Assembly (NCBI RefSeq): GCF_001677475.2
Contig: NZ_CP015229.1
DNA length: 64,000 bases
Direction: 5' to 3' (one strand)
From: Escherichia coli
Lineage (GTDB): Bacteria > Pseudomonadota > Gammaproteobacteria > Enterobacterales > Enterobacteriaceae
This document shows, in pieces, positions 5,124 to 35,300 of the stretch. A model generated the notes under the pieces. The model saw only the letters and a program-made list of their open reading frames with translations. It did no database searches and was not told the origin of the DNA. The first letter of the stretch is position 1. Every line of letters starts with the position of its first letter. A program made the position numbers and the translations under genes.

Positions 5124-5162
5124 GCAAACAGCGGTAAGGCGTAAGTTCAACAGGAGAGCATT

Positions 5163-7049: not shown

Positions 7050-7054
7050 AGTAT

Positions 7055-7320: not shown

Positions 7321-7472
7321 CCACTGTTTTTACACCGATAATTTTTCCCCCACCTTTTTGCGCTCATTCATATAAAAAATATATTTCCCCACGGAAACGA
7401 TTGCTTTTTATTTTCAGATGAATAGAATGCGGCGGATTTTTTGGGTTTCAAACAGCAAAAAGGGGGAATTTC

Positions 7473-7844
7473 GTGTCGCAAGATAACAACTTTAGCCAGG
7501 GGCCAGTCCCGCAGTCGGCGCGGAAAGGGGTATTGGCATTGACGTTCGTCATGCTGGGATTAACCTTCTTTTCCGCCAGTATGTGGACCGGCGGCACTCT
7601 CGGAACCGGTCTTAGCTATCATGATTTCTTCCTCGCAGTTCTCATCGGTAATCTTCTCCTCGGTATTTACACTTCATTTCTTGGTTACATTGGCGCAAAA
7701 ACCGGCCTGACCACTCATCTTCTTGCTCGCTTCTCGTTTGGTGTTAAAGGCTCATGGCTGCCTTCACTGCTGCTGGGCGGCACCCAGGTTGGCTGGTTTG
7801 GCGTTGGCGTGGCGATGTTTGCTATTCCGGTGGGCACCACATAG
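7473..7844 (+). pseudogene. codB: Cytosine permease CodB, 5' fragment (about 121 native codons) ending in 2 foreign codons and a stop created by the island junction
   Basis: Translation MSQDNNFSQGPVPQSARKG...VAMFAIPVG then TT*; the native continuation KATGLDIN... is found at 30919. Confidence 0.9.
7833..7836. other. Left island/chromosome junction (attL-like), GGCA shared with the right junction
   Basis: Native codB identity is lost after 7836; GGCA recurs at 30919-30922 where codB resumes. Confidence 0.6.
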
Positions 7845-7921
7845 GTCAATACCACCACAATAAAATTTTCCAATAAAAAAGCCCCATCACAAGGACAGGG
7901 CTATAGAATCAATTACTTACA

Positions 7922-8227
7922 TCACTTAATGTCTTTCATTCTACGAATACGCGCGCTTGCTTCGGATAGTTCTTCCAGTGTTACGTGATGTGCAAGCATA
8001 TAGACAGGAGTCGGATCGAATCCCTCGTGAGTATTGATCAGATGACTATTCCCGCCTTTAAACTCATCCTGTCCATCCCATATAGCGTACACGTCATCTT
8101 CTGCTACATAGATAATCAATCCAATAGGGGAGTCAGTAAGCTGGAAGATGCAGCCAGTAGAATCAATGCGATGTTCCCGAACGTCATCAACAGTTTCAAA
8201 GTCAATCTTAATATCTTTAGTCTTCAT
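7922..8227 (-). CDS. Hypothetical protein (101 aa), first gene inside the island's left end
   Basis: ORF only; no recognisable motif. Confidence 0.45.
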   Translation of the reverse strand: MKTKDIKIDFETVDDVREHRIDSTGCIFQLTDSPIGLIIYVAEDDVYAIWDGQDEFKGGNSHLINTHEGFDPTPVYMLAHHVTLEELSEASARIRRMKDIK

Positions 8228-8527
8228 GATTTGCCCTCGCGTGAAAAATATTTTCGATTATTTATAAAAAAAGACTTGACAAAATCAAAAGGTACTGTTC
8301 CACTGGTGAAATAAAGGGAGTTTTCGGCACCCCGGTTTTTGATGTGCGTGTGAGATTTCAAAACAGGTGCAGTGCAGCCCACCAGCGCGGTCGCTACGCG
8401 ACTATTAACACCCGCCAATCCCTTTCCCCGCCTCGATCTTTCATCTCGTTATAAATCGTTTTAGGCGCTCTCCTGAATGCGCAGATCAGATAAATAATTT
8501 TACGCAAATTTAAAGGAGGATAACCGG

Positions 8528-9079
8528 ATGAAAGAAGAATTAACCCTTACAGAAATTTCCCGCTTATACGGCTATACAATTAACGCCGCTAAGAAATGGC
8601 AAGAACGAGGAATGCCATTTAATACCAATACACGACGCGTACCAGCCAAAGAGGGGACCGAGTGGGTATTAAAAAATATCATCAACCCGCTTAAAGAAAC
8701 TACTGTCAAGGAACAAATCGACGTAGAGAAGTTACGCCGTGAGAGAGCATTAGCGGATGCAGCCGAACGAGAGAACCAGGAAGCAATGAATCTCCTGATT
8801 CCGGTCGGTTATGTAGAACAGGAACTAGCGGAATATTGCGGAAAGGTGAAACAGACTATTTTGCAGATCGCCACAATCGATGCTTTAGAAATTCTTGAAT
8901 CTGCCACTGACCAGAAAACATTGAAGAATAAGCTAAGGGAGATCATCGAGCGTCGTTTAAATGAAGTAGGGGACTTGTTCGAAAATGCGGATTTGGGAGA
9001 AGACGAGGAAGAAGAATTACCATTAATCGATGAACCGGAACAAGAACCAGAAGAAGACGATGAATTTGATGTGTCTTAA
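8528..9079 (+). CDS. Nu1-like small terminase / DNA-packaging HTH protein (183 aa) with acidic C-terminal tail
   Basis: N-terminus LTLTEISRLYGYTINAAKKWQERGMPF and EKLRRE segment resemble lambda Nu1 (QLADIFGASIRTIQNWQEQGMPV...EKLRRE); RBS AGGAGG upstream. Confidence 0.65.
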   Translation: MKEELTLTEISRLYGYTINAAKKWQERGMPFNTNTRRVPAKEGTEWVLKNIINPLKETTVKEQIDVEKLRRERALADAAERENQEAMNLLIPVGYVEQELAEYCGKVKQTILQIATIDALEILESATDQKTLKNKLREIIERRLNEVGDLFENADLGEDEEEELPLIDEPEQEPEEDDEFDVS

Positions 9080-9129
9080 AACGCGTTATAAATAAATGTA
9101 TGAAAGATGTTGAGCTGGTCAACGTCTAC

Positions 9130-9160
9130 GGGGGGAATCACCCCCCGCTAACCTTTTTCT
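9130..9160 (+). terminator. Rho-independent terminator after the Nu1-like gene
   Basis: GGGGGG-AATCA-CCCCCC hairpin followed by a T-rich tract. Confidence 0.55.
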
Positions 9161-9177
9161 TATTTGAGGATTTACCT

Positions 9178-9279
9178 ATGGTTGAATTTTTGATTTATCT
9201 GGCTGTAGGATTAACTATCGTATATTCACTGGCACATATTGGCATTTCTACTTTGTGTAACGCTTTCAAGTATCATTAA
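9178..9279 (+). CDS. Small hydrophobic peptide (33 aa, MVEFLIYLAVGLTIVYSLAHIGISTLCNAFKYH)
   Basis: Hand-translated short ORF below the ORF-track cutoff; single predicted TM helix; GGA-rich sequence upstream. Confidence 0.3.
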   Translation: MVEFLIYLAVGLTIVYSLAHIGISTLCNAFKYH

Positions 9280-9332
9280 TTAAATCGATGAATTGAACTA
9301 TAGATGATGGTCGTTTTCAAAGAGGATTATCT

Positions 9333-9506
9333 ATGGATCTTTTTGTCTATTTCGCTACTCTGCTGTTTTTGACTATCGTCGCTGGCATTAAATTGATTTT
9401 TATCTCGCTGGTGGTGTTTTTCAAATTTCTAATCGGTACGCCTTACGGCTGGGTATGCTTCTTCTTGTTTATTCTTTTTAGTTGCTGTAAATCAGACACT
9501 AAATAA
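9333..9506 (+). CDS. Small hydrophobic protein (57 aa, two predicted TM segments)
   Basis: Hand-translated ORF MDLFVYFATLLFLTIVAGIKLIFISLVVFFKFLIGTPYGWVCFFLFILFSCCKSDTK; RBS AGAGGA upstream. Confidence 0.35.
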   Translation: MDLFVYFATLLFLTIVAGIKLIFISLVVFFKFLIGTPYGWVCFFLFILFSCCKSDTK

Positions 9507-9801
9507 TATTGTAATCTGCCTTTCTCCTACATGGTTATTAACAGGGAATTTTCGAAAGAGAGTTCCCGATTAAAAGCCATAAAACACACTCCAGTACAGT
9601 GTTTTCATAGTCAGTGATCTATACATCATAAAAACATAACAAGTATAGATTGAGTGTTAATCCTCCCGCCCTTCGGGGCGGTTATTTTCTGGCTTTACTA
9701 GATAATGTAGCATCATGTTCATTATAAACCTCATCTTTGTTGTGCAAACCTAACCTTAACCTAAGTATAGGGAGTCTCTTAAATGGGACTCCCTTTTTTT
9801 A

Positions 9802-10044
9802 TTATGCAACCACTCGAAGTGTAGGTTTCTTATGTTGTGTAGGTTTATTGCCATTTCGCCACTCAGGAAACACCTGATCCATCATAACCGCGTTAGTTTC
9901 ATCAATCAGCTTTAGAGTCTTTCGTAATGCGGCGTTATCAGCTTTAAGCGATTTAATCTCTGAATCCATCTTAGCCATACGCTCTTTCATGTTGGTAATT
10001 TCTAACATCAGATTACCCAGAAATTCTTTGTTTTGATTAATCAT
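9802..10044 (-). CDS. Hypothetical coiled-coil protein (80 aa)
   Basis: ORF with heptad-like region MKERMAKMDSEIKSLKADNAALRKTLKL; last gene of a leftward 3-gene cluster. Confidence 0.45.
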   Translation of the reverse strand: MINQNKEFLGNLMLEITNMKERMAKMDSEIKSLKADNAALRKTLKLIDETNAVMMDQVFPEWRNGNKPTQHKKPTLRVVA

Positions 10045-10059
10045 AGAATTACCCCTCTA

Positions 10060-11046
10060 TTAAGCTGCGTATGCGTAGGCGCTGTAGTTGGTGTCGTAAA
10101 TCGCGTCATGTAATGCCATGTGTGCTTCGCGGATCTCGTCTTCGTTTACTTCAATCTCTTCTTGTTCTTCTTCGGTATCTTCCCAGCTAGTTTTGAATTT
10201 AGTCATAAAGTTGGTGCGCAGAGTTTCAAAGTTGGTAACTGGTGCGGATTCTGCTTCAACCGGAACCGGAACAACTACCGGATCAGCTTCTTGTTCTACT
10301 TCTTCACCGTTACCCCAGCGATAGTTAAGGAGTTCTTCATCAATGGATTTTTCTTCAACTGCTTTAACTTCAACCGCTGCTACTTCGAAAGTGGTTTCCT
10401 GTGCTGCCAGTTCAGCTTTCAGAGATGCGTTTTCAGCTTCCAGTTCAGCGATGCGTGCTTTCAGTGCTTCAACTTCGGAAGATTCAACCACTGCAACTTC
10501 TTCTTTAACTTCTTCAACTACTACCGGAGCAACTTCTTTCTGTGCTTCTTTTTTGCAGAAGAAGGAGGAAGTAACCTGTAATGCGTGGTTGTAGAAGGAA
10601 CCGCCTTTAGCGGTGTTAACAGTACCAGAAACATCTTTTACAGTGGATTCAGTAGCAACAGTACGGAAGCGTTTAGCAACTTCCTGGGTCTCTACGCCGT
10701 ATTCGTTGCGCTTGCTCTTGTGATGCATTACAGCACGGTAGCCGGAAGCAGTTTTAACAACAGCCAGATAGTAAGTTTCATCGGCTTTAACAGCACGAGC
10801 GAAGCAATAAACGGATTCACCTTCTACCAGTGTAGGTTTAACGTGACGTTTGTCGAAACGGTTAGTGATCTGCCATTCAGCACCGTCTTTGATGCCAGCA
10901 TTCTGACGCATTTCGGTCAGAGTCTTACCGGATACTACTTCAAAGGATTTGTCTTGTTTGCTTGCTTTACCTTCCATAACAGTAATGTTCAGTTTGCCGT
11001 TGGATTTAATAAACATGTTGAAGGTAATGCGCTTAGAATTTTTCAT
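10060..11046 (-). CDS. Hypothetical protein (328 aa): basic N-terminal domain, acidic coiled-coil C-terminal half
   Basis: ORF; C-terminal EVEALKARIAELEAENASLKAELAA and many E/D-rich stretches; no catalytic motif recognised. Confidence 0.5.
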   Translation of the reverse strand: MKNSKRITFNMFIKSNGKLNITVMEGKASKQDKSFEVVSGKTLTEMRQNAGIKDGAEWQITNRFDKRHVKPTLVEGESVYCFARAVKADETYYLAVVKTASGYRAVMHHKSKRNEYGVETQEVAKRFRTVATESTVKDVSGTVNTAKGGSFYNHALQVTSSFFCKKEAQKEVAPVVVEEVKEEVAVVESSEVEALKARIAELEAENASLKAELAAQETTFEVAAVEVKAVEEKSIDEELLNYRWGNGEEVEQEADPVVVPVPVEAESAPVTNFETLRTNFMTKFKTSWEDTEEEQEEIEVNEDEIREAHMALHDAIYDTNYSAYAYAA

Positions 11047-11163
11047 ATAAATACTCCTGAATACTCTGTGTTAGTTTTAATGTGTCATACTAAAAGCCTC
11101 CTTGCGCCAACAGGGAGGCTTTTTTATTTTTAAAGCCATCATATAATTCTCAGTGAAAGGTTA

Positions 11164-19538: not shown

Positions 19539-21539
19539 ATGCTTAAATTTCGCCGCGATCTTAACGGTTACGGTGGAGTTATTAACGAAGGGCATAACGA
19601 TCAATACGAATTTGAAATTGCTTTCTCCAGTGAACAGCCTTATCAGCGCCAATTCTGGGATGAGCAAAATCAAGAAATGGTGGTATTAGATGAAATTCTG
19701 GTACATACACCGGAAGCGGTTGATCTGTCTCGTCTGAATAATAACGCTCCGTTGCTGTTCAATCACAATTTCGATAATCACATTGGTGTCGTTTGTAACG
19801 CTCGAATCGATGCGGATAACGTAGGTCGTGCTCTGGTTAAATTCTCCAAGCATGGGACTTTGGCTAATGATATTCGTAACAAAGTCATCGAAGGTACGAT
19901 GGAAAAAATTTCTGTCGGCTATGACATTAAAGAGTATCACATCGACTACGCCAAATCGCAACTCATTGTTTCTAAATGGATTCCTCACGAGGTTTCATGG
20001 GTCACGGTACCCGCAGACGACACAGTGGGTCTGAATCGCTCTCTAAATACTATCACAGTTAATTTGGAGGCTAAACGCGATATGACTAAAGAACAAATCG
20101 AAGAAATCAAAAACGAAGAAGCCGCTCCGGTTGAAGAAACTCCGGTAGAAGAAAATAAAGAACCGGAAGTTGAAGAAACTCAAGAGCGCCAAGTTGAAGA
20201 GAATAAAGAAAATGAAAATCTCGAAGACGGAAAAGACGCTGAACATCCTGAAAGTGTTGATGATGATAGTTCAACTGTTCGGGAAGAAGAAATAAAAGAA
20301 GAACGTGAAGCTGCTCCGGTTGAAGAAGAAAAAATTGAAGAAGTGGCTGAACGTTCCGAAGAAGACGAATTAGAAATCCGCGAGATCGCGCGGGAACTAA
20401 ATATTGATGACTCTGAATTAGCACGTGCATTGTCGATTAAAGACATGACGCCGGAAGCATTCCGCACTAAGGCACTAAATAATCTCGTCAATGCTCAACG
20501 TAATAACGAACAACAAATTAAGGACTCTAAAATGGAAAAAACTTTTGACCTGAACAACGTAATTCGCTCTCTGGTAGATGGTGCTGCTCTGGGTGCTAAC
20601 GAAGCTGAATATTCCGCTATGGCTGCTACTGCAACTATGCAGCGTGGTCGTGCTGCTCGTGGTGGCTCCGTATTCGTTCCGGCTGCTGCTCTGCGTGCTG
20701 CTGCTGCTGGTAACACTAAAGCTACTCTGGAAGCTGTAACCGACGAAAAACTGCTGACTGAATCCTACATCGAAATGCTGATGCCTCAGAGTGTTTTAGG
20801 CCGCCTCGGTGTGACCGTTCTGTCTGGTCTGAATAGCCCGATCGCTGTTCCGAAAATGACTGCTTCCAGCGTTGACGCTTTCGGCTTCGTTGATGAAAAC
20901 GGTGCTGCACCGGAAAGCAAAGCTCAGTTTGAAAACGTGAAAATGGCTCCTAAGACTTTCGCAGGTGGCAACCCGATCAGCCGTCAGTCTCTGAAAACCG
21001 TTCCGGGTATCGCTACCCTGATCACTGATCACATTAACAAAGCTGTTCGCATCAAACTGGAACAACTGATTCTGTCTGATAAAGCTAACGACCGTGGTCC
21101 GGCTGGTCTGGTTAAGCAACTGGTAGACGCGGGTCGCGTTACTAAGAAAGCCGCTTTCTCTTACAAAGACTTCCTGAAAGAAATTGCAGCACTGACCGAC
21201 GCTGGCGTTCCTGCTCAGGCGATCAAGTTTGCGATGAGCGGTGCAACTGCTGCTGAACTGGAATCTACCCTGAAAGATAACGGCGTTTCCGGTTATATCA
21301 TCGAAAACGGCAAACTGGCTGGTTACGAAGTAGTTACTTCTGGTGTTATCCCGGCAGACCACATCGTTCTGGGCGCGTTCGACGGTATCACCATTGGTGA
21401 GTGGGGCGGTCTGGAACTGGATATGGACGACACTACCTACCGTGCACAGTCTGCAATCGTTCCGCGTATCTGGGTAGATCTGGATTACGTTGTAACCCAG
21501 CCGGAAGCTCTGAAAGTTCTCCAGATTGGCGGTGAATGA
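19539..21539 (+). CDS. Fused prohead serine protease, E/K-rich scaffold-like linker and HK97-fold major capsid protein (666 aa)
   Basis: N-terminal PLLFNHNFDNHIGVV...KISVGYD fits the caudovirus prohead protease signature; residues ~190-320 are E/K-rich; C-terminal ~340 aa resemble HK97-type capsid proteins. Confidence 0.75.
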   Translation: MLKFRRDLNGYGGVINEGHNDQYEFEIAFSSEQPYQRQFWDEQNQEMVVLDEILVHTPEAVDLSRLNNNAPLLFNHNFDNHIGVVCNARIDADNVGRALVKFSKHGTLANDIRNKVIEGTMEKISVGYDIKEYHIDYAKSQLIVSKWIPHEVSWVTVPADDTVGLNRSLNTITVNLEAKRDMTKEQIEEIKNEEAAPVEETPVEENKEPEVEETQERQVEENKENENLEDGKDAEHPESVDDDSSTVREEEIKEEREAAPVEEEKIEEVAERSEEDELEIREIARELNIDDSELARALSIKDMTPEAFRTKALNNLVNAQRNNEQQIKDSKMEKTFDLNNVIRSLVDGAALGANEAEYSAMAATATMQRGRAARGGSVFVPAAALRAAAAGNTKATLEAVTDEKLLTESYIEMLMPQSVLGRLGVTVLSGLNSPIAVPKMTASSVDAFGFVDENGAAPESKAQFENVKMAPKTFAGGNPISRQSLKTVPGIATLITDHINKAVRIKLEQLILSDKANDRGPAGLVKQLVDAGRVTKKAAFSYKDFLKEIAALTDAGVPAQAIKFAMSGATAAELESTLKDNGVSGYIIENGKLAGYEVVTSGVIPADHIVLGAFDGITIGEWGGLELDMDDTTYRAQSAIVPRIWVDLDYVVTQPEALKVLQIGGE

Positions 21540-21730
21540 ACTCCTGTAGAACCATCTGAACCTTCCCCCGATTTGGGGGAAGAAAATCTGATTCCTGAAC
21601 CGGAAGAAGAATCCCAGACGGTTAAGGCGAAAGCCACAGTTAAAAAACAACGTAAAACTAAAGAATAATAATTAGCCCTGCCTAACGGTGGGGCTTTTTT
21701 GTATGTAAATACTCCATAAAGGGGGTAACT

Positions 21731-22021
21731 ATGTTCAAATTATCAGAATCACAATTATCAAGAATGTTTAAGAGTGCTCCTGTATTTGTGGTGGAAGGTG
21801 GTAAATCAATTCGTGCTTATCATGAAATTACTACTACCGACGAATCAGGGGTAATGACAGAAACAGAATTTCTATTCTGTCGTGAGGGAGACTTAAAGCA
21901 AGGTGATATTGTCACAGTAGAAAACCAGCGTTTCAAAGTTCAATATATTAAGCGCAATGGTGACAATACAACTGATTGCTTTATTACTCTGGCAGGGGGT
22001 ACACATGCTCGCTACCGTTAA
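21731..22021 (+). CDS. Putative head-tail joining / head-completion protein (96 aa)
   Basis: Size and position after the capsid gene; RBS AAAGGGGG. Confidence 0.4.
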   Translation: MFKLSESQLSRMFKSAPVFVVEGGKSIRAYHEITTTDESGVMTETEFLFCREGDLKQGDIVTVENQRFKVQYIKRNGDNTTDCFITLAGGTHARYR

Positions 22022-22427
22022 TAATATGCCGAGACTGAAAATCAAACGCGCCTTGCAAGATATTATCGAACAAGATTTAGGTCTGGCTTTAAACGTAGAA
22101 CAAACTCAGCAAGGCTTTAGCGATGACGTGGTTTGTTGGATTACTGGCATGAATGAAACTTATACGCGTGTTCGTGGTGGTAATGCAATGCAAGCTGAAT
22201 GTGTTATCGAAATGCAGTTATATTCTCAGATTCATGAAACGAAAATTCATGAGGGTATTTGCGAGATAATCCAGATTCAGCCGGATAACCCACGATTTAA
22301 AGATTTGGGCTTCTCAATTTCAGATATCACTCCAGTAGCTTCTAATACCGATTATGACGATGATTCTAGTGATGGGGGTATCGTTGGGACACTTAGCCTT
22401 AAATTTTCTTATCTAGCGCGTTTTTAA
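22002..22427 (+). CDS. Putative head-tail connector/adaptor protein (about 141 aa; ORF track offers an upstream ATG at 21957)
   Basis: Overlaps the end of the previous gene (translational coupling); RBS GGGGGT before the 22002 ATG. Confidence 0.4.
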   Translation, partial: HMLATVNNMPRLKIKRALQDIIEQDLGLALNVEQTQQGFSDDVVCWITGMNETYTRVRGGNAMQAECVIEMQLYSQIHETKIHEGICEIIQIQPDNPRFKDLGFSISDITPVASNTDYDDDSSDGGIVGTLSLKFSYLARF

Positions 22428-22436
22428 GGGGTAATA

Positions 22437-23270
22437 ATGAATATTACACAAGATAACTTAGACATTTTCACGGGGTCGCATGTTGAAGTCTCCTTGTCTA
22501 CTATGGTGGATAACCAGCCGGACTTTTTCGATCCTGCATTTAGTCCTATCGAGAACATCGCAGCATTCCCGACGATAACCGAATCCACAGAGATCCAGAC
22601 GTTAGAAGAATATGACCATGATGTTACTGGTAAGTTGGCTGGCTATCGTAAACTTGAATCAACTACGTTAGTAGTAAACCGTGTTCTGGATGATGAACAT
22701 CAAGACATGTTGATGAAAGCGGTGAATGATAAAACTCCTTTACGCTTTCGTATGTTCTATGTTGTGAACTCTGGTTACAGTGCTGCTAACACAGGTTACT
22801 ACGTCATCTTTGACGCTTTCGTCTCGTCACATAAAACAAAATCCGGCGATAACAAAGTTACTACAATCGAGTTTAAATTAGAACCTGATGGCGGGATTCT
22901 GGATCGCGGTATTGCTACCGAAGGCCGGATCTTACGTCAAGGTGATTTTGGTCTGGGTGCTGGTGTAAATCCATTCACGGGTCCGATTGATAGCGAAGCA
23001 TTAGCCGGAAACCGTTTCGTAACCTATCAGGGATCGAGCGCATCTAACCCATTTAGTGCTGATACTTCACTAATTCACGTTCAACCTAATGAAGATGGAG
23101 GATGGCAATTAACTTGCACCGCCTCCGGCGCACCACGTTTACGAGTTCGCACAGTCCAGAAAGATGGTAATTCTGGATGGGTGAAAGTGTATTCCACAGA
23201 AGAAAAACCGACACCAGCCGAGATTGAAGCCGTTTCTATCCATGACAGGATCGATTTCGGGGAATACTGA
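22437..23270 (+). CDS. Putative virion structural protein (277 aa), neck/tail-proximal; function unclear
   Basis: ORF with RBS between connector genes and tail fibre; G/S/T-rich C-terminal half. Confidence 0.4.
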   Translation: MNITQDNLDIFTGSHVEVSLSTMVDNQPDFFDPAFSPIENIAAFPTITESTEIQTLEEYDHDVTGKLAGYRKLESTTLVVNRVLDDEHQDMLMKAVNDKTPLRFRMFYVVNSGYSAANTGYYVIFDAFVSSHKTKSGDNKVTTIEFKLEPDGGILDRGIATEGRILRQGDFGLGAGVNPFTGPIDSEALAGNRFVTYQGSSASNPFSADTSLIHVQPNEDGGWQLTCTASGAPRLRVRTVQKDGNSGWVKVYSTEEKPTPAEIEAVSIHDRIDFGEY

Positions 23271-23346
23271 TTGCTTCTCTAAATAAAAACATGACGCGGG
23301 GAGGTTAACGCCTCCCTTATTCCTGTTTTTATAGTGAGGTGATTAG

Positions 23347-26271
23347 ATGCAATCAATCCAATTTAAACGAACTAGTGTTTCTGGCAAAAAACCTACGCCG
23401 GAACAATTACAGGTCGGTGAGGTAGCAATCAACCTTAAAGACCATGTTATTTTCACCAAAGACCGAGATAATGCCGTAGTTCAAATCTCTGTTTCTCCTG
23501 AAACTCACACTGCATTAGAAACTAAAGTTAATGCGAATAAGAAAGAATTAGACGGCAAGATTACTACAAATCACAACAATATTAACGCTAAAGTAGATGA
23601 AATTAAACAAACTACTGATGCAACTATCGCAGCAAATCACGCAGAAATTAACAATAAAGTTGATGTGATTAAGCGCGAAACCGATGCGACAATCACGGCT
23701 AATAAAAATAAAGCTGCTTCCGACCTTGCTGGCGTTAAAGCTGAATTGTCCGATACCATCACCGCTAATAAAAATGCGGCTGCTGTAGCAACTCAGGAAC
23801 TGGACACCCGCATCAATAAAAAAGTTGATGATAACAAAGCTAAAACTGATGCAACTATCGCCAGCAATCACAAAGCAATCAATGACAAAGTTGATTTGAT
23901 TAAGGCCGAGACTGACCGCACTATCGCAGCAAATAAAACATATGCTGATACTCAGCTAACTAATGCTACTAATGATCTGAATACTGTCATTGCTGCAAAT
24001 AAAAAAGAAGCTGCTGATAGCGTGGCTGCATTAACTAAGACTGTAAACACTAAAGATACAGCGATTCATAGAAAAGTTGACGAGAATAAAGCACTGACCG
24101 ACGCGGAATTATCCCGTTTGTCTGGACGACTTGAAGATGTTGCTAGTATTGGTCAAAACCGAGGCGAATTGCCAGTAGATGCTAATCTTGATCACTATGG
24201 TCCACGTTCAGAATTTGCTGGTATTTGGGGTAAATCGACTTCAACGAATGCACAACCAAGTCACAATTTCCCAGAAGAAAATGCTGTAGGTGTTCTGGAA
24301 GTTTTCACAGGCGGTCAATTCTCTGGGACTCAGCGTTATACAACACGCTACGGTAATATCTACATTCGTTCTCTTACCGCTACATGGAATGGTACTGATG
24401 GTCCGTGGTCGCCGTGGCGCAATATTCAGATGGGTACACGTCCGCTTTCGTCAACCATCGATCTTAATGATTTGGGTGGAGTTGAGCATTTTGGTTTATG
24501 GCGCAATAGCTCTAACTCAATTGCGGCTCTAGAAAGGAATTTCCCAGAAGCTGGGGCGATGGCACAAGGTCTTTTAGAAGTCTTTGAGGGTGGCAACTAC
24601 TCCCGCACTCAGCGTTATACGACCAGAATGGGCGTTGTATATGTTCGCTGTCTTGCTGCTGCATGGGATGCTAGTGCTCCTAAATGGGGTCCGTGGCAAC
24701 AAGTAGGTAATGTAACACCGTCTACTTTCTATGACGGAAACCTGAACAACTTCAAAACACCTGGTTTATATAACATTTTAGGCACTGACAAAGTTACTAA
24801 CCGTCCTGTTGCAGAAGGTGTTCCGGTTGAGATGACCGCATTGCTTGAGGTTAAACAGCGTGCTTCCGGTGGCGCTATTTTCCAACGTTTCACTACCGCA
24901 GGAACGGGAACTACTACCCGTGGTCGTGTTTTTGAACGTGCAATGACAAATAATATCTGGGGAGATTGGCACGAAGTACATACATCATATTCTATGCCAA
25001 TTACTTTAGGTATCGGTGGGATTAAAACACAATTAGAATCTTTAGATTGGCAAACTTTTGATTTTGTTCCTGGTAGCATGTTTAGCGTGCCATTGAATAA
25101 AATTACCAATATGCCAGCAAAAATGGATTGGGGAACAATTGACGGAAACCTGATCATGTTTTCCGTTGGTCCTAGTGAACACACTAGCACAGGGCGTACT
25201 GTTCAGGTTTGGCGTGGTACTGTGTCTCAAGCAAACTACCGTTATTTTGTTGTTCGTGTATTTGGTAATTCAGGAGAGAGAACTTGCACCGTTCGCCGTG
25301 TTGCTCTTGAGGATGGTCGCCATACATGGACAGCACAACAAGATTTTAACGGCGCGGTTAACTTCGGTGGGTCTGTTGTTAACTTTAAAACAGCCACTAA
25401 CTTTAATAACACTACCAGTTTTAAAACAGAAGCTAAATTTCTTTCATCTAATGCATTCCGTATGTATGGCGGTAATTTTGGTGCATTCTTGCGTAATGAT
25501 GGTGAAAGTGTTTATCTTCTTTCCACCAATGAAAATGATAAAGATGGAAACTATAATACAAATAGACCTTTCCGGTATCAGTTAAAAACTGGTGATGTTA
25601 CTTTGGGTGGAACTAGCGGTGCTGATATTTTAAGATTAAAAAGTAGTTCTCTTGCTGCTACCTTTGGCGGTGATGTTAATTTAAGTAAAGGCGTATTGAC
25701 GTTTGAAGCTGGCGGTAAGCAATCTCGCGATTATTTCCGGTTTAATCATTGGGGTGATAGCAATAAAGCTCGCGATAACATCATTCAGTTAGAAGATAGT
25801 AAAGGTGCTCATTTTTCCACTGAACGCACACTGGCAACGGGTGCAATCAAAACTAAGTTCTTTGGTGAAGTTGAATCCGATGGTCGATTAACTATTAAAC
25901 GTCCGGGTGATGCTATTGTATTATCGACTACAGCTAGCAACTCGTTGCATATTCGTGGTGATGTTGGTGGAAGCAATAACTGGTATATTGGTAAAGGTGG
26001 TGCTGATAATTCACTAGCATTTTATAGCTACGCAACTAAAGCGGGTATACACATCACAAATAATGGTGAGATATCATTTGCCCCGCAAAATTTTGCTGGT
26101 ATTAACATTAACAAAGACCGTATCTATATCAATGCTACACAATGGATTGCTAATCATTCCGGTTCATGGGATGGACAGTGGAGAGAAGAAGCACCCATCT
26201 TTATTGATCAGGGTAGTGTTGGACAAGATAGCTATTATCCTCTTATTAAAGGACATAGCCAGATCACAGGT
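23347..26271 (+). CDS. Tail fibre protein (974 codons), 3' end interrupted by an IS3-family element
   Basis: Repeated KVDxIKxxTDATIxANxxxIN helical repeats; C-terminal GSNNWYIGKGGADN resembles T7 gp17 tip motif NNWYIGRGSDN; stop codon TGA is the first 3 bases of the IS. Confidence 0.75.
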
Positions 26272-26328
26272 TGAATCGCCACGGGTTTAACAGACACCTC
26301 AGAGTCATTTAAGATGGCTTAAAGAGAG

Positions 26329-26613
26329 GTGCCCATGAGCGGTAAGCGTTATCCCGAAGAGTTTAAAATTGAAGCAGTCAAACAGGTTGTTGATCGCGGT
26401 TATTCTGTTGCCAGCGTTGCAACACGTCTCGATATCACCACCCACAGCCTTTACGCCTGGATAAAGAAGTACGGTCCGGATTCTTCCGCTAATAAAGAAC
26501 AGTCAGATGCTCAGGCCGAGATCCGCCGTCTCCAGAAAGAGCTGAAGCGGGTTACCGACGAACGGGACATATTAAAAAAAGCCGCGGCGTACTTCGCAAA
26601 GCTGTCCGACTGA
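26329..26613 (+). CDS. IS3-family transposase OrfA (HTH, leucine-zipper region)
   Basis: 94 aa ORF MSGKRYPEEFKIEAVKQVV...; ends shortly after the A7 slippery site. Confidence 0.85.
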   Translation: MPMSGKRYPEEFKIEAVKQVVDRGYSVASVATRLDITTHSLYAWIKKYGPDSSANKEQSDAQAEIRRLQKELKRVTDERDILKKAAAYFAKLSD

Positions 26614-27482
26614 GGTACGCCTTTATCCGTGACAACACCTGTTGCTGGCCTGTTCGCCTGCTCTGTCGGGTGCTGGATGTTCATCCCAGTGGTTTTTACG
26701 CCTGGCTTCAGCAGCCGCATTCACAACGCCATCAGGCAGACCTGAGGCTGACAGGGCAGATTAAACAGTTCTGGCTGGAATCGGGATGCGTCTATGGTTA
26801 TCGCAAAATCCATCTGGATCTGCGGGACAGCGGGCAACAGTGCGGAGTGAACAGAGTCTGGCGACTGATGAAACGTGTCGGGATAAAGGCTCAGGTCGGA
26901 TACCGGAGCCCGCGGGCACGTAAAGGCGAGGCCAGTATCGTGTCGCCCAACAGGCTCCAGCGACAGTTCAATCCGGATGCTCCGGATAAGCGTTGGGTAA
27001 CGGACATAACCTACATCAGGACCCACGAAGGCTGGCTGTATCTTGCCGTGGTTGTTGATCTGTTCTCACGCAAAATTATCGGCTGGTCCATGCAATCCCG
27101 GATGACAAAGGACATTGTCCTGAACGCACTGCTGATGGCTGTATGGCGCCGTAATCCCCAAAAACAGGTGCTGGTTCATTCGGATCAGGGCAGTCAGTAC
27201 ACAAGCCATGAGTGGCAGTCGTTCCTGAAATCACACGGCCTGGAGGGCAGCATGAGCCGTCGCGGTAACTGCCATGATAATGCGGTTGCAGAAAGCTTTT
27301 TCCAGTTGTTGAAACGCGAACGGATAAAGAAAAAGATCTACGGAACGCGGGAAGAAGCCCGCAGCGATATTTTTGATTACATCGAAATGTTTTATAACAG
27401 TAAGCGTCGGCATGGTTCCAGCGATCAGATGTCACCGACAGAATATGAAAACCAGTATTATCAACGGCTCGGAAGTGTCTAG
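26575..27482 (+). CDS. IS3-family transposase OrfB (integrase catalytic DDE domain), expressed as OrfAB by -1 frameshift; ORF-track ATG at 26670
   Basis: -1 frame relative to orfA, open from the slippery site; motifs WVTDITYIRT, VVDLFSRKIIGW, HSDQGSQYTS, NAVAESFF. Confidence 0.85.
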
Positions 27483-27548
27483 ATTATCCGTGGCGATTCA
27501 GACAAATTTATTAAATTTGGAATCACTACCCGAAAACCAGAAGAACGA

Positions 27549-27938
27549 ATGAGAGAGCAAACCAGAAAGAGCAACTTCACTCACCGATTAATCTTTACTC
27601 ATGAGTTTGAGGATGGTTGGAAAGCTGCCGATTTAGAGCATGAAGTAAAACAACGCTTCAAGACTCATGCCGCACCCTACAAAGATTTCAAGGATGGATG
27701 GTCGGAAACTCTGACTATCGATGAGTTGCCACACTTACAGCAACTGGTTTATGACTACCTAACCAATCAACCGGACGAGGCTAATATGTGGGTATCCCCG
27801 AAAGATGTATTTGATGACGATACATTCAAGCTACATACTCACTTCTACGGCATCAATAAACCGGAATTTTTCTGTATTGATGACGATAGTCCTGATTTAA
27901 TGGATGAATACTTTAATTCTCTCTTAGACGCTGCCTAA
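27549..27938 (+). CDS. Hypothetical protein (129 aa from first ATG; open frame extends upstream to the IS end at 27501), probably 5'-truncated; possible GIY-YIG/T5orf172-like domain
   Basis: Frame is open from 27501 (DKFIKFGITTRKPEERMREQ...); KFGITT...R...E pattern recalls the second motif of GIY-YIG/T5orf172 domains; weak, from memory only. Confidence 0.35.
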   Translation: MREQTRKSNFTHRLIFTHEFEDGWKAADLEHEVKQRFKTHAAPYKDFKDGWSETLTIDELPHLQQLVYDYLTNQPDEANMWVSPKDVFDDDTFKLHTHFYGINKPEFFCIDDDSPDLMDEYFNSLLDAA

Positions 27939-27950
27939 CGCAATTAAATT

Positions 27951-27973
27951 AAAAAGGGGTACATCTGTACCCC
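27951..27973 (-). terminator. Hairpin terminator downstream of the recombinase gene
   Basis: GGGGTAC-ATCT-GTACCCC stem-loop preceded on the plus strand by AAAAA (T-tract on the minus strand). Confidence 0.5.
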
Positions 27974-28011
27974 TTAAAGCGTTTATCTCGTTATACGTCG
28001 ATTTAGGCCGC

Positions 28012-29709
28012 TTAAATTCCAAATTCCTGCAACAATCCCGGTTGTTCTTCTTCTGGTTTCCAGTTCTTATCTGTCAGCATTTCTAAACATGGATGCAGAA
28101 CAAGCCCGTTGCTCTCCAGAATCTGCCTATCATTGATAGTCTTCACGTCTACAAAAATTCTCCCTTTCCGGTTACGGCGTGACCTCTCGATCACTATCCT
28201 TTGCGTCTTCCCGTCGATGTACTCCATCACAAAATGATTATAATTGGTATCAATCTTGTAACATTTTATAGACTTAACAGCTTCTTTAATCTTCAATCGA
28301 ACTTTTAACCGTTCCTCGCTGCAAACATCCTCTAAATCAAATTGTGCGAGCTTCTCCCAGCCTTGAGAATCAACTGAATACATGTTCTCTTCTATTACCT
28401 TAATCTGGTTATAGATGGCCTCACGCTCATGATTCAGGGTAGTAATCTGGTCGGCTAACTCCTTCGTTGCTCCTGTCATTGCAGAAAGACTAATCAGGTT
28501 ATCAATCTTGCGTGAAATGTCTTCAATCTGGGCTTGCATTCCTGGGATCGGATTGGCCTTATCCTCAGCAATCCAGATTTTATCCGCCAGCAATTGCAAT
28601 ACAGCCTTATCCAGTTGATCACCACGAAAGCCCCAATTTGGATGATCACAATTGGTCCTCCTGCTATCTGCGCCATCGCACATATAACGATATTGGGCTA
28701 ATCTCTCTTTTGATGCTCCGCTTCTCTTAACCATACTTGCCCCACAATGACCACATCTAAGCAAACCAGCACCACTTAACAGGGTAATAACAGGACTAGA
28801 CTTAGTAGGATAAGAAAACGACCTCAGTCCTATAGTCTTCTTGAGTTGATAGAACTCGGCATCTTCCATCACTCGCGGGTAATAATCCTTTAACTCATAT
28901 GTCACACCTTCAATGGTTATCTCTTTGATACCAAGTAAAGCGCGGTTAGAGAACATCCTGGCTAACATAGAACGCGCCCATTTCTTAGGGGTATCTTTGT
29001 TCGTTGTGTAATTAGGCGGGGCGATTCTTTCATTCAGATAATCAAGAACCCGACCATTAGAATAACCATTCTGTTTTAATTCAACGATTTTCTTGATAAC
29101 AGGAAAATACACCGGATGTGGAAGCACATAACCCGATGAAGTATCAGCCCACCATATATTGCGACCAACTTCCTCGATTGCCACTGCCGGATTTTGTGGA
29201 TTCTCCTGATGGGCTTTAACCTTGAGTAGTGCGCTTGAGTTAGTGCGATTGCGTTTAGTCTGACTTTCCTCATTTGCACGAGCAAACAACATTACACTCA
29301 ACAGTAAATCGATGGGATTAGCATTAACCGATTCTTTGCTATATACCTTCCCATCCATACCAGTAACAATTGTTATTCCCCTGCGGATGATCGAAAGGAA
29401 TAGCTCTTGAGCTTCAATAACAGATTGACGGGAGATACGGTCTAAGTTTTCCACCACCAGCCAGCTACCAACCGGAACGGATCGACCAATTTCATCCAGA
29501 AAACGAGATAATGCACCTGTTTTACTGTTAGCCCCTTTGAATGCAGATACACCGAAATCCTGATAGGAAGTAACTAGCTCAAGATCATATTTTGCGGCTA
29601 TCTCTTTCGCTGTTCTCTTCTGGCGTTCAAATGAGCTACCATCGGCTTGCTTCATGGAAGAGAAGCGAATATACGAATACAGTTTAGTTTTCATACCATT
29701 TCCAAACAA
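28012..29709 (-). CDS. Large serine recombinase (integrase), 565 aa
   Basis: N-terminal resolvase-type catalytic domain (YSYIRFSSMKQ with candidate nucleophile Ser, VVENLDRISRQ), recombinase domain, Cys-rich zinc ribbon CGHCG...C...C, C-terminal coiled-coil. Confidence 0.88.
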   Translation of the reverse strand: MFGNGMKTKLYSYIRFSSMKQADGSSFERQKRTAKEIAAKYDLELVTSYQDFGVSAFKGANSKTGALSRFLDEIGRSVPVGSWLVVENLDRISRQSVIEAQELFLSIIRRGITIVTGMDGKVYSKESVNANPIDLLLSVMLFARANEESQTKRNRTNSSALLKVKAHQENPQNPAVAIEEVGRNIWWADTSSGYVLPHPVYFPVIKKIVELKQNGYSNGRVLDYLNERIAPPNYTTNKDTPKKWARSMLARMFSNRALLGIKEITIEGVTYELKDYYPRVMEDAEFYQLKKTIGLRSFSYPTKSSPVITLLSGAGLLRCGHCGASMVKRSGASKERLAQYRYMCDGADSRRTNCDHPNWGFRGDQLDKAVLQLLADKIWIAEDKANPIPGMQAQIEDISRKIDNLISLSAMTGATKELADQITTLNHEREAIYNQIKVIEENMYSVDSQGWEKLAQFDLEDVCSEERLKVRLKIKEAVKSIKCYKIDTNYNHFVMEYIDGKTQRIVIERSRRNRKGRIFVDVKTINDRQILESNGLVLHPCLEMLTDKNWKPEEEQPGLLQEFGI

Positions 29710-29757
29710 AAACGCCCCTACCGTGTATTATAACGATAGGGGCTAGGTGATTAAAGA

Positions 29758-30171
29758 TTAAAGAATTTCACGGCAGCTAATCAGGGTATAAGATGTATCA
29801 CCTTTTTTAACATCAAATATAGGAGCGCCATCTACAGAATGCAGATATTTGATGTAGGATTTACCATCTTCGGAACCATAATATTCTTCTTTCTCGTTCT
29901 TATCTTCTTTCAGTTTCGGGCTTTTGATTGTTCTATCAAATACCGGATCGTTGAAAGCAAATTGACTATTATCATCATTCACGCGAACTTTCACACCGAT
30001 AAAGCCACGGTATTTTCCAGACGGTGCATGATAATAACGGTCGCCATCACTCAGGTAGCGTGTATCATCTCCTTTATGTTCGAAGTAGGAATTACACACA
30101 TAATAGGTATTAGCATTAGCAGTACCAACCAAACCCATAGCAAGAACGATACCAGCGATAATCTTTTTCAT
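29758..30171 (-). CDS. Exported protein (137 aa) with N-terminal signal peptide
   Basis: MKKIIAGIVLAMGLVGTANA signal-like N-terminus; two Cys residues; no other motif. Confidence 0.5.
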   Translation of the reverse strand: MKKIIAGIVLAMGLVGTANANTYYVCNSYFEHKGDDTRYLSDGDRYYHAPSGKYRGFIGVKVRVNDDNSQFAFNDPVFDRTIKSPKLKEDKNEKEEYYGSEDGKSYIKYLHSVDGAPIFDVKKGDTSYTLISCREIL

Positions 30172-30216
30172 AGTAGAATTTCCTCTTGTTATTTGAATTA
30201 CGATATATTTATATCG

Positions 30217-30342
30217 TTAAAAGTTGATGCTGATTACCAGACCAAACACAACCGCACCAATCAAATCAATCCAGTTAATACACAATCCGCTATATTCTTT
30301 CTTGAATGTCTTAGATGAAATGCCATCATGAAATTGTTTCAT
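30217..30342 (-). CDS. Small membrane peptide (41 aa, MKQFHDGISSKTFKKEYSGLCINWIDLIGAVVFGLVISINF)
   Basis: Hand-translated; RBS GGGGTGA; C-terminal hydrophobic helix. Confidence 0.35.
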   Translation of the reverse strand: MKQFHDGISSKTFKKEYSGLCINWIDLIGAVVFGLVISINF

Positions 30343-30345
30343 TGC

Positions 30346-30426
30346 TCACCCCATACTAACGACAAGATAAGAAAGGCTGATCATAGTTGTGAGACTACCT
30401 CCCACGAATGAGATAAAAGCTAACAT
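30346..30426 (-). CDS. Small hydrophobic peptide (26 aa, MLAFISFVGGSLTTMISLSYLVVSMG)
   Basis: Hand-translated; RBS GGAGA 8 nt upstream; immediately precedes the 41-aa peptide. Confidence 0.3.
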   Translation of the reverse strand: MLAFISFVGGSLTTMISLSYLVVSMG

Positions 30427-30483
30427 GTTTGATTCTCCAGTTTAAAAAGCGGTGGGAATTGCACCCACCAAATTAGAAATTAA

Positions 30484-30891
30484 TTAAGCGCGAACGATGG
30501 TCAGAGTATCCAGCAAACCTTTTTCGTATAATTCGAAACACGTTTTATATTGCTCAATCTTCCAACCGTAGCGGGTGATCTTATTCAGTAGAACAATCGC
30601 GCTACTTTCATCCAGATATTGCCCCTGCTTACCGATTACATAAGTCTCACGATTCAGCTTTAACTTACGGAAACCTTTAACACCTAATTCCTTAGCCACC
30701 GCTTTAATCTCTTTAATCTCACCTTCTGCGGCTACATATTCAGCGTCGATAATCTCAGGTGATGATCTCAGTGCTACCAGAACTAAGGCCATTGCTTCTT
30801 CTTCGGTACGAGCAACACCAGCTTTCTCGAAAGTCATCTCACCAAATTTACGAATCATGATATTGAACATTGTCTGTATTCCTGCGTTCAA
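30484..30891 (-). CDS. Hypothetical protein (135 aa; alternative start at MFNIMIRK), last gene before the right junction
   Basis: ORF only; start faces the right island boundary. Confidence 0.45.
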   Translation of the reverse strand: MNAGIQTMFNIMIRKFGEMTFEKAGVARTEEEAMALVLVALRSSPEIIDAEYVAAEGEIKEIKAVAKELGVKGFRKLKLNRETYVIGKQGQYLDESSAIVLLNKITRYGWKIEQYKTCFELYEKGLLDTLTIVRA

Positions 30892-30912
30892 ACTTAATGT
30901 GGTTGGAATGAT

Positions 30913-31818
30913 ATGTTAGGCAAGGCAACCGGGCTGGATATTAATATGCTGATTGCAGTCTCCGGTTTACTGATGACCGTCACCGTCTTCTTTGGCATTT
31001 CGGCGCTGACGGTTCTTTCGGTGATTGCGGTTCCGGCTATCGCCTGCCTGGGCGGTTATTCCGTGTGGCTGGCCGTTAACGGCATGGGCGGCCTGGACGC
31101 ATTAAAAGCGGTCGTTCCCGCACAACCGTTAGATTTCAATGTCGCGCTGGCGCTGGTTGTGGGGTCATTTATCAGTGCGGGCACGCTCACCGCTGACTTT
31201 GTCCGGTTTGGTCGTAATGCCAAACTGGCGGTGCTGGTGGCGATGGTGGCCTTTTTCCTCGGCAACTCGTTGATGTTTATTTTCGGTGCAGCGGGCGCGG
31301 CGGCACTGGGGATGGCGGATATCTCTGATGTGATGATTGCTCAGGGTCTGCTGCTGCCTGCGATTGTGGTGCTGGGGCTGAATATCTGGACCACCAACGA
31401 TAACGCACTCTATGCGTCGGGTTTAGGTTTCGCCAACATTACCGGTATGTCGAGTAAAACCCTTTCGGTGATTAACGGTATTATCGGTACGGTCTGCGCA
31501 CTATGGCTGTATAACAATTTTGTCGGCTGGCTGACCTTCCTTTCGGCAGCTATTCCTCCGGTAGGGGGCGTGATCATCGCTGACTATCTGATGAACCGTC
31601 GCCGCTATGAGCACTTTGCGACCACGCGTATGATGAGTGTCAATTGGGTGGCGATTCTGGCGGTCGCCTTGGGGATTGCCGCAGGCCACTGGTTACCGGG
31701 TATTGTTCCGGTCAACGCGGTATTAGGTGGCGCGCTGAGCTATCTGATCCTTAACCCGATTTTGAATCGTAAAACGACAGCAGCAATGACGCATGTGGAG
31801 GCTAACAGTGTCGAATAA
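30913..31818 (+). pseudogene. codB: Cytosine permease CodB, 3' fragment (fortuitous ATG at 30913 created by the junction)
   Basis: Translation (ML)GKATGLDINMLIAVSGLLMTVTVFFG... matches the CodB C-terminal two thirds. Confidence 0.9.
30919..30922. other. Right island/chromosome junction (attR-like), GGCA
   Basis: Native codB reading resumes at 30919 (GKATGLDIN...); imperfect inverted symmetry between the inner island ends (ACCACCACAAT at left vs reverse-complement CCAACCACATT at right). Confidence 0.6.
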
Positions 31819-33091
31819 CGCTTTACAAACAATTATTAACGCCCGGTTACCAGGCAAAGAGGGGCTGTGGCAGATTCATCTGCTGGACGGAAAAATCAGC
31901 GCCATTGATGCGCAATCCGGCGTGATGCCCGTAACTGAAAACAGCCTGGATGCCGAACAAGGTTTAGTTATACCGCCGTTTGTGGAGCCGCATATTCACC
32001 TGGACACCACGCAAACCGCCGGACAACCGAACTGGAATCAGTCCGGCACGCTGTTTGAAGGCATTGAACGCTGGGCCGAGCGCAAAGCGTTATTAACCCA
32101 TGACGATGTGAAACAACGCGCATGGCAAACGCTGAAATGGCAGATTGCCAACGGCATTCAGCATGTACGTACCCATGTCGATGTTTCGGATGCAACGCTG
32201 ACCGCGCTGAAAGCAATGCTGGAAGTGAAGCAGGAAGTCGCGCCGTGGATTGATCTGCAAATCGTCGCCTTCCCGCAGGAAGGGATTTTGTCGTATCCCA
32301 ACGGTGAAGCGTTGCTGGAAGAGGCGTTACGCTTAGGGGCAGACGTAGTGGGGGCGATTCCGCATTTTGAATTTACCCGCGAATACGGCGTGGAGTCGCT
32401 ACATAAAACCTTCGCCCTGGCGCAAAAATACGACCGTCTCATCGACGTTCACTGTGATGAGATCGATGACGAGCAGTCGCGCTTTGTCGAAACCGTTGCT
32501 GCCCTGGCGCACCGTGAAGGAATGGGCGCGCGAGTCACCGCCAGCCACACCACGGCAATGCACTCCTATAACGGGGCGTATACCTCACGCTTGTTCCGTT
32601 TGCTGAAAATGTCCGGTATTAACTTTGTCGCCAACCCGCTGGTCAATATTCATCTGCAAGGACGTTTCGATACCTATCCAAAACGTCGCGGCATCACGCG
32701 CGTTAAAGAGATGCTGGAGTCCGGCATTAACGTCTGCTTTGGTCACGATGATGTCTTCGATCCGTGGTATCCGCTGGGAACGGCGAATATGCTGCAAGTG
32801 CTGCATATGGGGCTGCATGTTTGTCAGCTGATGGGCTACGGGCAAATTAACGATGGCCTGAATTTAATCACCCACCACAGTGCCAGAACGTTGAATTTGC
32901 AGGATTACGGCATTGCCGCCGGAAACAGCGCCAACCTGATTATCCTGCCTGCAGAAAATGGGTTTGATGCGCTGCGCCGTCAGGTTCCTGTACGTTATTC
33001 GGTACGTGGCGGTAAGGTGATTGCCAGCACACAACCGGCACAAACCACCGTATATCTGGATCAGCCAGAAGCCATCGATTACAAACGGTAA
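31808..33091 (+). CDS. codA: Cytosine deaminase (GTG start; ORF track offers ATG at 31793)
   Basis: [16 protein letters not shown]..., metal-dependent amidohydrolase HxH motif PHIHLD; overlaps codB end. Confidence 0.95.
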
Positions 33092-33130
33092 TTTCCTCTG
33101 TGTTGAAGAGCCACTGACCTGTGTCAGTGG

Positions 33131-34030: not shown

Positions 34031-34139
34031 TCGCCAACCTATAAGTAAACCCAATAGAACTCATCATAAATGAGTCTTTTACCTTATGACAATCGGCGAG
34101 TAGTCTGCCTCTCATTCCAGAGATAGACAGAGGTTAACG

Positions 34140-34799: not shown

Positions 34800-34811
34800 C
34801 CTTATTTTTAA

Positions 34812-35300
<489 letters not shown>

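Follow-up and report, generated by a model that had tools for sequence, protein, structure and literature searches.

Several prophages that encode a large serine recombinase interrupt a bacterial gene at a fixed intragenic position. They include phi10403S/A118 in comK of Listeria, and SPbeta in spsM and skin in sigK of Bacillus subtilis. A general framework for such gene-splitting prophages has been put forward under the name 'regulated gene integrity' (PMC7192596). The locus described here belongs to a 64,000-nt stretch of Escherichia coli DNA (assembly GCF_001677475.2, contig NZ_CP015229.1), called the window below, in which a 23-kb prophage splits codB, the gene of the cytosine permease, and separates the downstream gene codA from the promoter of the codBA operon. 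The element resembles the comK, spsM and sigK prophages in that a large-serine-recombinase prophage occupies a fixed intragenic site, does not restore the gene, and would rebuild the open reading frame (ORF) by conservative excision. Like skin, it is defective. The codB prophage differs from these systems in that its target is a nucleobase permease heading a two-gene operon, the main added effect being polarity on codA, and in that neither regulated excision nor a recombination directionality factor has been recognised for it.

Two further cases are close in host or in outcome. The Shiga toxin (Stx) prophage in mlrA is lambdoid and uses a tyrosine integrase. It interrupts mlrA (yehV) in E. coli O157, and its excision restores curli regulation, according to the account of Uhlich et al. 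2016 given in PMC7192596. There too a prophage of E. coli knocks out a chromosomal gene by inserting within it, and excision brings the phenotype back, but the phage is unrelated to the codB prophage and leaves no downstream operon partner promoterless. Convergent loss of codBA has been described in Shigella (Touchon et al. 2009; PMC2617782); cytosine salvage is dispensable and has been lost repeatedly in some Escherichia lineages. In Shigella the loss is due to deletion or decay, whereas the present case is a single, precise and potentially reversible insertion with codA intact. A literature search turned up no mention of codB as a place of prophage insertion; its coverage was incomplete and the negative is weak evidence.

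The explanation that we consider probable as a whole combines conservative site-specific integration, loss of CodB, orphaning of codA, crippling of the prophage by an insertion sequence (IS) and a candidate promoter that is split at attP. The phage would be a temperate one from an uncharacterised Escherichia/Salmonella family. Its own large serine recombinase would have inserted it conservatively at the cognate attB, for which codon 121 of codB provides the GGCA core.

Integration of the prophage at codB

After codon 121 of codB (Gly121), the left junction reads ACC ACA TAG and continues as phage DNA. Host sequence restarts at 30922 with AAG GCA ACC, that is, with codB from codon 122 on, and runs for 298 codons to the stop at 31818. 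The ORF that contains this second part opens with ATG-TTA (Met-Leu), two codons derived from the phage end. The insert interrupts the ORF without supplying a replacement gene end: the N-fragment stops two codons into the phage, and the C-fragment gains Met-Leu only. In other codB lysogens the 3' fragment is predicted by gene callers as a 301-aa gene (truncated permease). Excision in silico, which joins 7473-7835 to 30922-31818, yields an exact codB ORF of 1260 nt and 419 aa, and the rejoined CodB differs from that of E. coli NCCP15648 by one amino acid (L130M). The order of the genes in the window is prpE, codB, codA and cynR. Judged from the sequence, the split is a clean cut of the permease gene between the third and fourth transmembrane helices (TM3 and TM4). 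A preliminary description of the locus had stated that each half of codB lacks the other, and this is borne out, with 121 codons on one side of the 23,086-bp element and 298 on the other. The premises and coordinates of that description stand; the serine-integrase origin of the insert, its reversibility, the defect of the prophage, the in-frame ATG and the attP promoter had not been considered in it.

The integrase encoded near the right end of the element (Table 1) has a catalytic resolvase/invertase domain (PF00239, E = 1.2e-15, residues 6-154) with the N-terminal motif YIRFSS, followed by the C-terminal recombinase (PF07508, E = 4.2e-8) and zinc beta-ribbon (PF13408, E = 1.7e-11) domains of large serine recombinases. 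It matches the phrog_95 integrase profile with E = 3.9e-55. The attachment sites have the form typical of such enzymes, with a short shared core, imperfect inverted-repeat arms in attP (AATGTGGTTGG...CCACCACAAT) and a conservative exchange that leaves no target duplication. The two junctions have GGCA alone in common, and no bases are lost or duplicated beyond this core. Strain 39EVA has GGTAA at the attL core position.

The window and seven other genomes, which together represent at least six host backgrounds, have the same codB junction (attR) without a single base of difference. Divergence among the host flanks of these eight lysogens reaches 4.3%, whereas six of the phage right ends share 99.8-100% identity with one another. 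Because the flanks have diverged and the phage ends are nearly identical, the integrations into these hosts appear to be independent. The nearest integrase cluster (P0001, 98% identical) adjoins the codB 3' fragment and codA in six of the six contexts listed, and E. coli 39EVA carries a full-length 35.8-kb prophage at exactly the same codB site. Insertion at codB is rare (1 of 5,426 complete E. coli genomes); the integrase module is found in 58 of these 5,426. The comparison of junctions indicates that codB is the cognate attachment site of the phage and not an accidental one. It is now defined as the attachment site for one branch of an unstudied temperate-phage family, in which sister integrase branches target hicB and ycdX. 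The relatives at the hicB site are found in strains PRO_A-1412, L3Cip3 and C325, and those at the ycdX site in KSC64 and STEC1575.

Loci L005 and L006, both codB lysogens (positions 1-2547), have SopD-like/pentapeptide-repeat and WipA-phosphatase-like genes after codA. Since cynR-cynTSX does not follow codA there, these hosts have a different gene neighbourhood.

The consequence for transport follows from the position of the cut. CodB of the window is colinear with the solved CodB of Proteus vulgaris (7QOA) in a gap-free alignment. In the P. vulgaris protein, Na+ is bound by Gly29 and Phe32 of TM1 and by Asn275, Thr278 and Thr279 of TM8, and cytosine is contacted by Gln105 and Trp108 of TM3, Ser203, Phe204 and Ala207 of TM6, and Asn280 of TM8 (PMC9379551). 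Gly29, Phe32, Gln105 and Trp108 map to the 121-residue N-fragment, and Ser203, Phe204, Ala207, Asn275, Thr278, Thr279 and Asn280 to the C-fragment. A functional CodB, an NCS1 transporter, needs the contacts of TM1 (the Na2 site), TM3, TM6 and TM8 in a single polypeptide, and no such polypeptide is encoded here. Neither fragment can form the complete Na+/cytosine site because the binding residues are divided between them. On these structural grounds it can be soundly predicted that CodB-dependent transport of cytosine is lost while the element is integrated; uptake of both cytosine and 5-fluorocytosine via CodB would be absent for as long as the element stays in place.

Table 1. Positions of the features of the codB locus and its prophage in the window
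Feature	Position	Strand	Remarks
Native codBA control region	7391..7428	+	PurR box ACGGAAACGATTGCTT 7391-7406; -35 TTGCTT 7401-7406; -10 TAGAAT 7423-7428
codB 5' fragment	7473..7844	+	GTG 7473; codons 1-121 (TM1-TM3), then two phage codons (Thr-Thr) and stop
attL core GGCA	7833..7836		crossover within; attL, attR and attB compared with uninterrupted codB of NCCP15648
Integrated defective prophage	7836..30921		23,086 bp, one core copy counted
-35 hexamer TTGACC of candidate attP promoter	7844..7849	-	left arm; stranded at left prophage end once integrated
Intrinsic terminator	7880..7902	-	3' of leftmost minus-strand ORF; conserved in hicB- and ycdX-type relatives
101-aa ORF	7922..8227	-	left prophage end; no Pfam or PHROG match; WP_000849925.1 in relatives
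Small terminase subunit-like gene	8528..9079	+	phrog_57, E = 2.6e-15
Rha/Ant-family regulator	13463..14305	+	PF09669, E = 2.8e-16; PHROG anti-repressor families
Head module	15497..21539	+	large terminase 15497-17404; 164-aa ORF; portal 17982-19493; 666-aa major-capsid-family protein 19539-21539
Truncated tail-fibre gene	23347..26274	+	cut at 26271; stop TGA is first three bases of the IS
IS3-family insertion sequence	26272..27500	+	1229 bp; 38-nt terminal inverted repeats; left repeat starts at 26272
GIY-YIG nuclease remnant	27501..27938	+	last 438 nt; 5' two-thirds deleted
Terminator hairpin T3	27954..27975	-	3' of integrase gene; conserved in relatives
Large serine recombinase (integrase)	28012..29694	-	560 aa, full length
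Terminator hairpin T2	29714..29743	-	directly upstream of integrase gene; conserved
137-aa protein	29758..30171	-	signal-peptide-like N-terminus; no family match; moron-like, not in 39EVA
Terminator T1	30450..30470	-	3' of ORF1; conserved in relatives
ORF1	30484..30870	-	128 aa; gene nearest attR, reads away from codA
Best promoter-like site toward codA	30523..30551	+	TTCGTA-17-TATATT; PWM (position weight matrix) score 8.6; antisense within ORF1
Junction promoter-like site	30887-30917	+	TTCAAA-19-TATGTT; PWM score 6.6
-10 hexamer TATCAT of candidate attP promoter	30908..30913	-	right arm; without its -35 once integrated
codB 3' fragment	30913..31818	+	phage ATG-TTA, then codons 121-419 (TM4-TM12); end overlaps codA start
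attR core GGCA	30919..30922		common to attL
codA	31808..33091	+	cytosine/isoguanine deaminase, 427 aa; GTG start; E = 7e-292 to PDB 3O7U; codA in annotation of relatives

Transcription of codA

CodA of the window differs from PDB 3O7U by five substitutions, and its metal-binding and catalytic motifs are present. codB and codA overlap by 11 nt, and a Shine-Dalgarno sequence, GGAGG, is located at 31797-31801, 6 nt upstream of the GTG. The best promoter-like site upstream of codB is TTGCTT-16-TAGAAT (7401-7428), with a PWM score of 9.5, and its -35 hexamer is overlapped by a PurR box that has one mismatch to the codB-codA site of MG1655 (PMC3159470). Cho et al. found codB-codA to be one PurR-bound, adenine-repressed transcription unit (PMC3159470). 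The same operon layout, with PurR box and promoter before codB and codA directly downstream and overlapping, is found in the window. Box and promoter are both intact before the 5' fragment, but this PurR-bound region, the sole promoter documented for codA, is separated from the gene by 24.3 kb. Danielsen is said to have reported in 1992 that codA lacks a separate promoter.

Downstream of the prophage genes with plus-strand orientation, the final 2.9 kb of the island consists of minus-strand genes throughout, accompanied by the three terminators T1, T2 and T3 on that strand, and a consensus scan detected no plus-strand promoter between 30470 and the codB junction. The preliminary description had held that codA is intact, that its native promoter lies about 23 kb upstream, and that the last island genes read away from it. 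The first claim agrees with the 427-aa product, its five substitutions and its motifs; the second with a displacement of 23.1 kb; and the third with the integrase, 137-aa and 128-aa ORFs, which are all on the minus strand. Its further claim, that transcription of codA would need a new promoter, is judged fair, since no plus-strand promoter above chance is found at the junction.

Three findings weigh against silence of codA. A site that scores 8.6, compared with 9.5 upstream of codB, is located 390 nt into the phage end and faces codA. codA has a strong Shine-Dalgarno sequence of its own, and any transcript that reached codA could be translated because this GGAGG has been kept. Finally, none of the eight lysogens has an interruption in codA or in either half of codB. 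Based on these findings it could be postulated that codA is still usefully expressed: a cryptic outward promoter at the phage end, at 30523-30551 or 30887-30917, would give constitutive transcripts that cross the codB 3' fragment and enter codA, and its own Shine-Dalgarno sequence would serve for translation. Cytosine or isoguanine generated inside the cell would then still be deaminated, and only uptake would be lost. The site at 30523-30551 is indeed kept in all codB-type lysogens. It is, however, kept equally in the hicB-type phages and is not specific to codB lysogens; its conservation there would be due to the coding constraint on ORF1, which occupies the opposite strand. All PWM scores toward codA are 8.6 or lower, and sites of this score occur at chance frequency, with about 0.8 expected per 750 nt examined; the consensus scan has no plus-strand site in this region. 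Moreover, about 400 nt of untranslated antisense RNA would presumably be open to Rho. The uninterrupted state of codA and the codB halves fits a recent insertion, and continued use or reversibility fit it equally well. Taken together, these points make useful expression of codA possible but rather doubtful. A dedicated outward promoter evolved for codA was considered separately and rejected, as hicB-type phages have the best site too and sites of its score arise at chance frequency.

The orphaning of codA is the preferred explanation. The gene is predicted to be cut off from its regulation, being uncoupled from purine and nitrogen control, and would be expressed at most weakly, via cryptic promoter-like sites in AT-rich phage DNA. 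For the host, the predicted outcome is loss of CodB-dependent cytosine uptake, lower sensitivity to 5-fluorocytosine, and a cytosine deaminase that is off purine and nitrogen control. The functions predicted to be lost are the same salvage functions that were convergently lost in Shigella lineages.

The putative attP promoter and the question of reversibility

The consequence for codB and codA is in itself ordinary: by site-specific insertion a prophage disables a permease that is not essential and leaves the next gene orphaned. The part of the locus expected to interest the specialist is solely the conserved candidate promoter that spans attP. When attP of the circular element is reconstructed, a strong sigma-70-type promoter sequence, TTGACC-16-TATCAT, appears on the minus strand with the crossover core in its spacer. 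With a PWM score of 12.9 it ranks within the top 1e-5 of positions in the window. The corresponding attP sequences are TTGACC-17-TATCAT in 39EVA, TTTACA-18-TATAAT in two hicB-type prophages and TTGACT-17-TATCAT in the ycdX type. In five prophages of three att specificities (codB, hicB and ycdX) the attP score is 12.9-14.4, and sites that span the junctions of attL, attR or attB score 7.2 or lower. The layout is that of a circle-specific promoter: the -35 hexamer is at one end of the element, the -10 hexamer is at the other, and a spacer of 16-18 nt is present only when the ends are joined.

Junction promoters are known from the circular intermediates of insertion sequences, such as Pjunc of IS911 and those of other IS3-family, IS30 and IS110-family elements. 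Pcirc of ICEclc is a comparable promoter of the circular state. In all of these a promoter is formed only when the ends of the element join and is taken apart by insertion, so that expression of the neighbouring gene depends on the circular state; as in Pjunc, the two ends contribute one hexamer each, the -35 and the -10. The present sequence differs from the IS junction promoters in being part of a temperate-phage attP, with the crossover core in the spacer and two terminators before the recombinase gene, and in being predicted. We know of no described equivalent, that is, a functional promoter across attP in a large-serine-recombinase phage. A literature search found no report of attP-spanning promoters in serine-integrase phages, a negative that carries little weight given the incomplete coverage of the search.

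The putative promoter points at ORF1 and the integrase side, and ORF1 follows directly. Integration dismantles it, and the att-proximal ORF1, the neighbour of codA, would accordingly be silent in the lysogen. Such dismantling fits the lack of transcription signals, in either direction, at the codA junction. Two points speak against this interpretation. The conserved terminators T1, after ORF1, and T2 separate the attP promoter from the integrase gene; since both precede that gene, the targets of the promoter beyond ORF1 are ambiguous. The hexamers may also be partly integrase recognition motifs, given their quasi-symmetric positions in the arms. Taken alone, the claim that the attP junction promoter is functional has, in our estimate from the DNA sequence, about an even chance of being correct. 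A promoter that is dismantled by integration could matter to users of serine-integrase tools and to the study of how prophages sense their state of integration.

Excision that restores codBA is possible in principle because the integrase and both att arms are intact and the split is conservative. This raises the possibility that the element is a reversible switch in the sense of regulated gene integrity or active lysogeny, the tail-less, IS-deleted copy being domesticated rather than decaying. The locus has features that such a switch would require: a full-length integrase, att arms that agree with those of other lysogens, an ORF interrupted without a replacement end, and exact restoration of this ORF by precise excision in silico. 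The codB halves and codA are uninterrupted in the eight lysogens despite the divergence of the host flanks, the relatives also target ORFs (hicB and ycdX), and a 36-kb ycdX element is listed in the supplementary tables of a screen for regulated gene integrity (PMC7192596). Against this, no recombination directionality factor was recognised among the Pfam and PHROG profile matches, nor is there any sign of excision. The phages of six of the eight lysogens are almost the same in hosts that have diverged, a pattern that suggests separate, recent infections and not prolonged retention; the insertion is rare, as noted above; and the IS-mediated deletion resembles ordinary prophage decay. A domesticated switch is accordingly improbable. 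The same low probability is assigned to a switch in which the attP promoter makes the att-proximal gene, possibly the integrase, a read-out of the excised circular state.

Least credible is the proposal that the N-fragment, made from the codB promoter, and the C-fragment, made from the phage ATG at 30913, assemble into a working CodB: the cut does fall in the loop between TM3 and TM4 and the phage end does provide an in-frame ATG, as does that of the ycdX-type phage, but no promoter was identified for the C-fragment, its Shine-Dalgarno sequence is merely GGA, the hicB-type phage provides no in-frame start, and the ATG needs no translational explanation because it overlaps the -10 element (ATGATA), so that such complementation is extremely unlikely. 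Bibi and Kaback are said to have found in 1990 that split halves of LacY can assemble into a working transporter; we know of no precedent in the NCS1 family.

The prophage, its relatives and the host

The insert has a G+C content of about 0.42, compared with about 0.55 in the flanks. It is syntenic, at 86-95% DNA identity, with the full-length 36-39 kb prophages of 39EVA (codB) and of PRO_A-1412 and L3Cip3 (both hicB). The names of the head-module genes follow the annotation of these relatives by the Prokaryotic Genome Annotation Pipeline (PGAP), to which the DNA is 86-90% identical; the terminase also matches phage large terminases by tblastn. Compared with the relatives, about 14-17 kb has been lost, including the genes of the tail tube, the tape measure, the baseplate hub, the tail tip, lysis and the helicase. 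The gap is occupied by an IS3-family element, of which 100% identical full-length copies are present in other E. coli genomes, where they are annotated as IS3 family transposase. The IS has no target-site duplication, its flanks being ..ggt and gac... Beyond it, the alignment to the L3Cip3 prophage begins exactly at 27501, which corresponds to position 37457 of that locus (L011), and the ORF of the nuclease remnant matches just positions 468-548 of the 576-position phrog_681 endonuclease profile. By its predicted gene content this copy of the prophage is defective through an IS-associated deletion. A capsid-forming satellite of the cfPICI type was considered and rejected, as the full-length relatives encode tail and lysis genes and the gap in the window is bounded by the IS.

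Among GenBank phages no close isolated relative was found: the integrase has at most 31% and the large terminase at most 43% amino-acid identity. DNA similarity to isolated phages is confined to the tail-fibre gene, the distal part of which (24163-26271) is about 78-82% identical to the distal long-tail-fibre genes of T4-like Escherichia and Yersinia phages, the similarity ending at 26271. This suggests that a receptor-binding module has been exchanged between temperate and virulent phage lineages. Exact-pattern scans of IMG/VR, JGI metagenomes and GTDB representative genomes for a free phage or an intact attP returned nothing, and a search with Rfam detected no RNA family within the island.

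Some smaller features of the element are listed here. The terminator at the left end lacks a T-run for plus-strand transcripts that come from the codB promoter. At 11821-11994 there are five or six copies of the motif AAACCTACACT, in an ORF-poor stretch of about 1.5 kb (about 11.1-12.6 kb) that is conserved in the relatives; these repeats may form an array of iterons or operators, or mark an origin of replication. Two small hydrophobic ORFs, of 41 aa (30217-30342) and 26 aa (30346-30426), are found on the minus strand in the interval from ORF1 to the integrase gene. The T2 hairpin is GC-rich with TATAAT in its loop and is present in all att types (29714-29743 in the window, 38368-38403 in locus L003 and 44874-44903 in locus L015). 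Its role may be to terminate transcription, to regulate expression of the integrase, or to do both. Among the sister prophages, those of loci L001, L011 and L012 are inside hicB, the antitoxin gene of HicAB, and those of L013-L015 are inside ycdX. In the hicB lysogen PRO_A-1412 the toxin gene hicA is annotated as frameshifted, and in L3Cip3 it is intact.

The host flanks (1836-7835 and 30922-36921) are 97-98% identical to the best of the 5,426 complete E. coli genomes. Compared with one B1 strain, there is 1 difference in the 363 nt of the codB 5' half, and there are 27 in the 897 nt of the 3' half. The host may represent a divergent lineage, or the region may be mosaic across the insertion. 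The intergenic region between prpE and codB contains two tandem matches to the Rfam family naRNA4 (RF02564, REP325-type), at 7147-7223 and 7241-7317, with 72 bits each.

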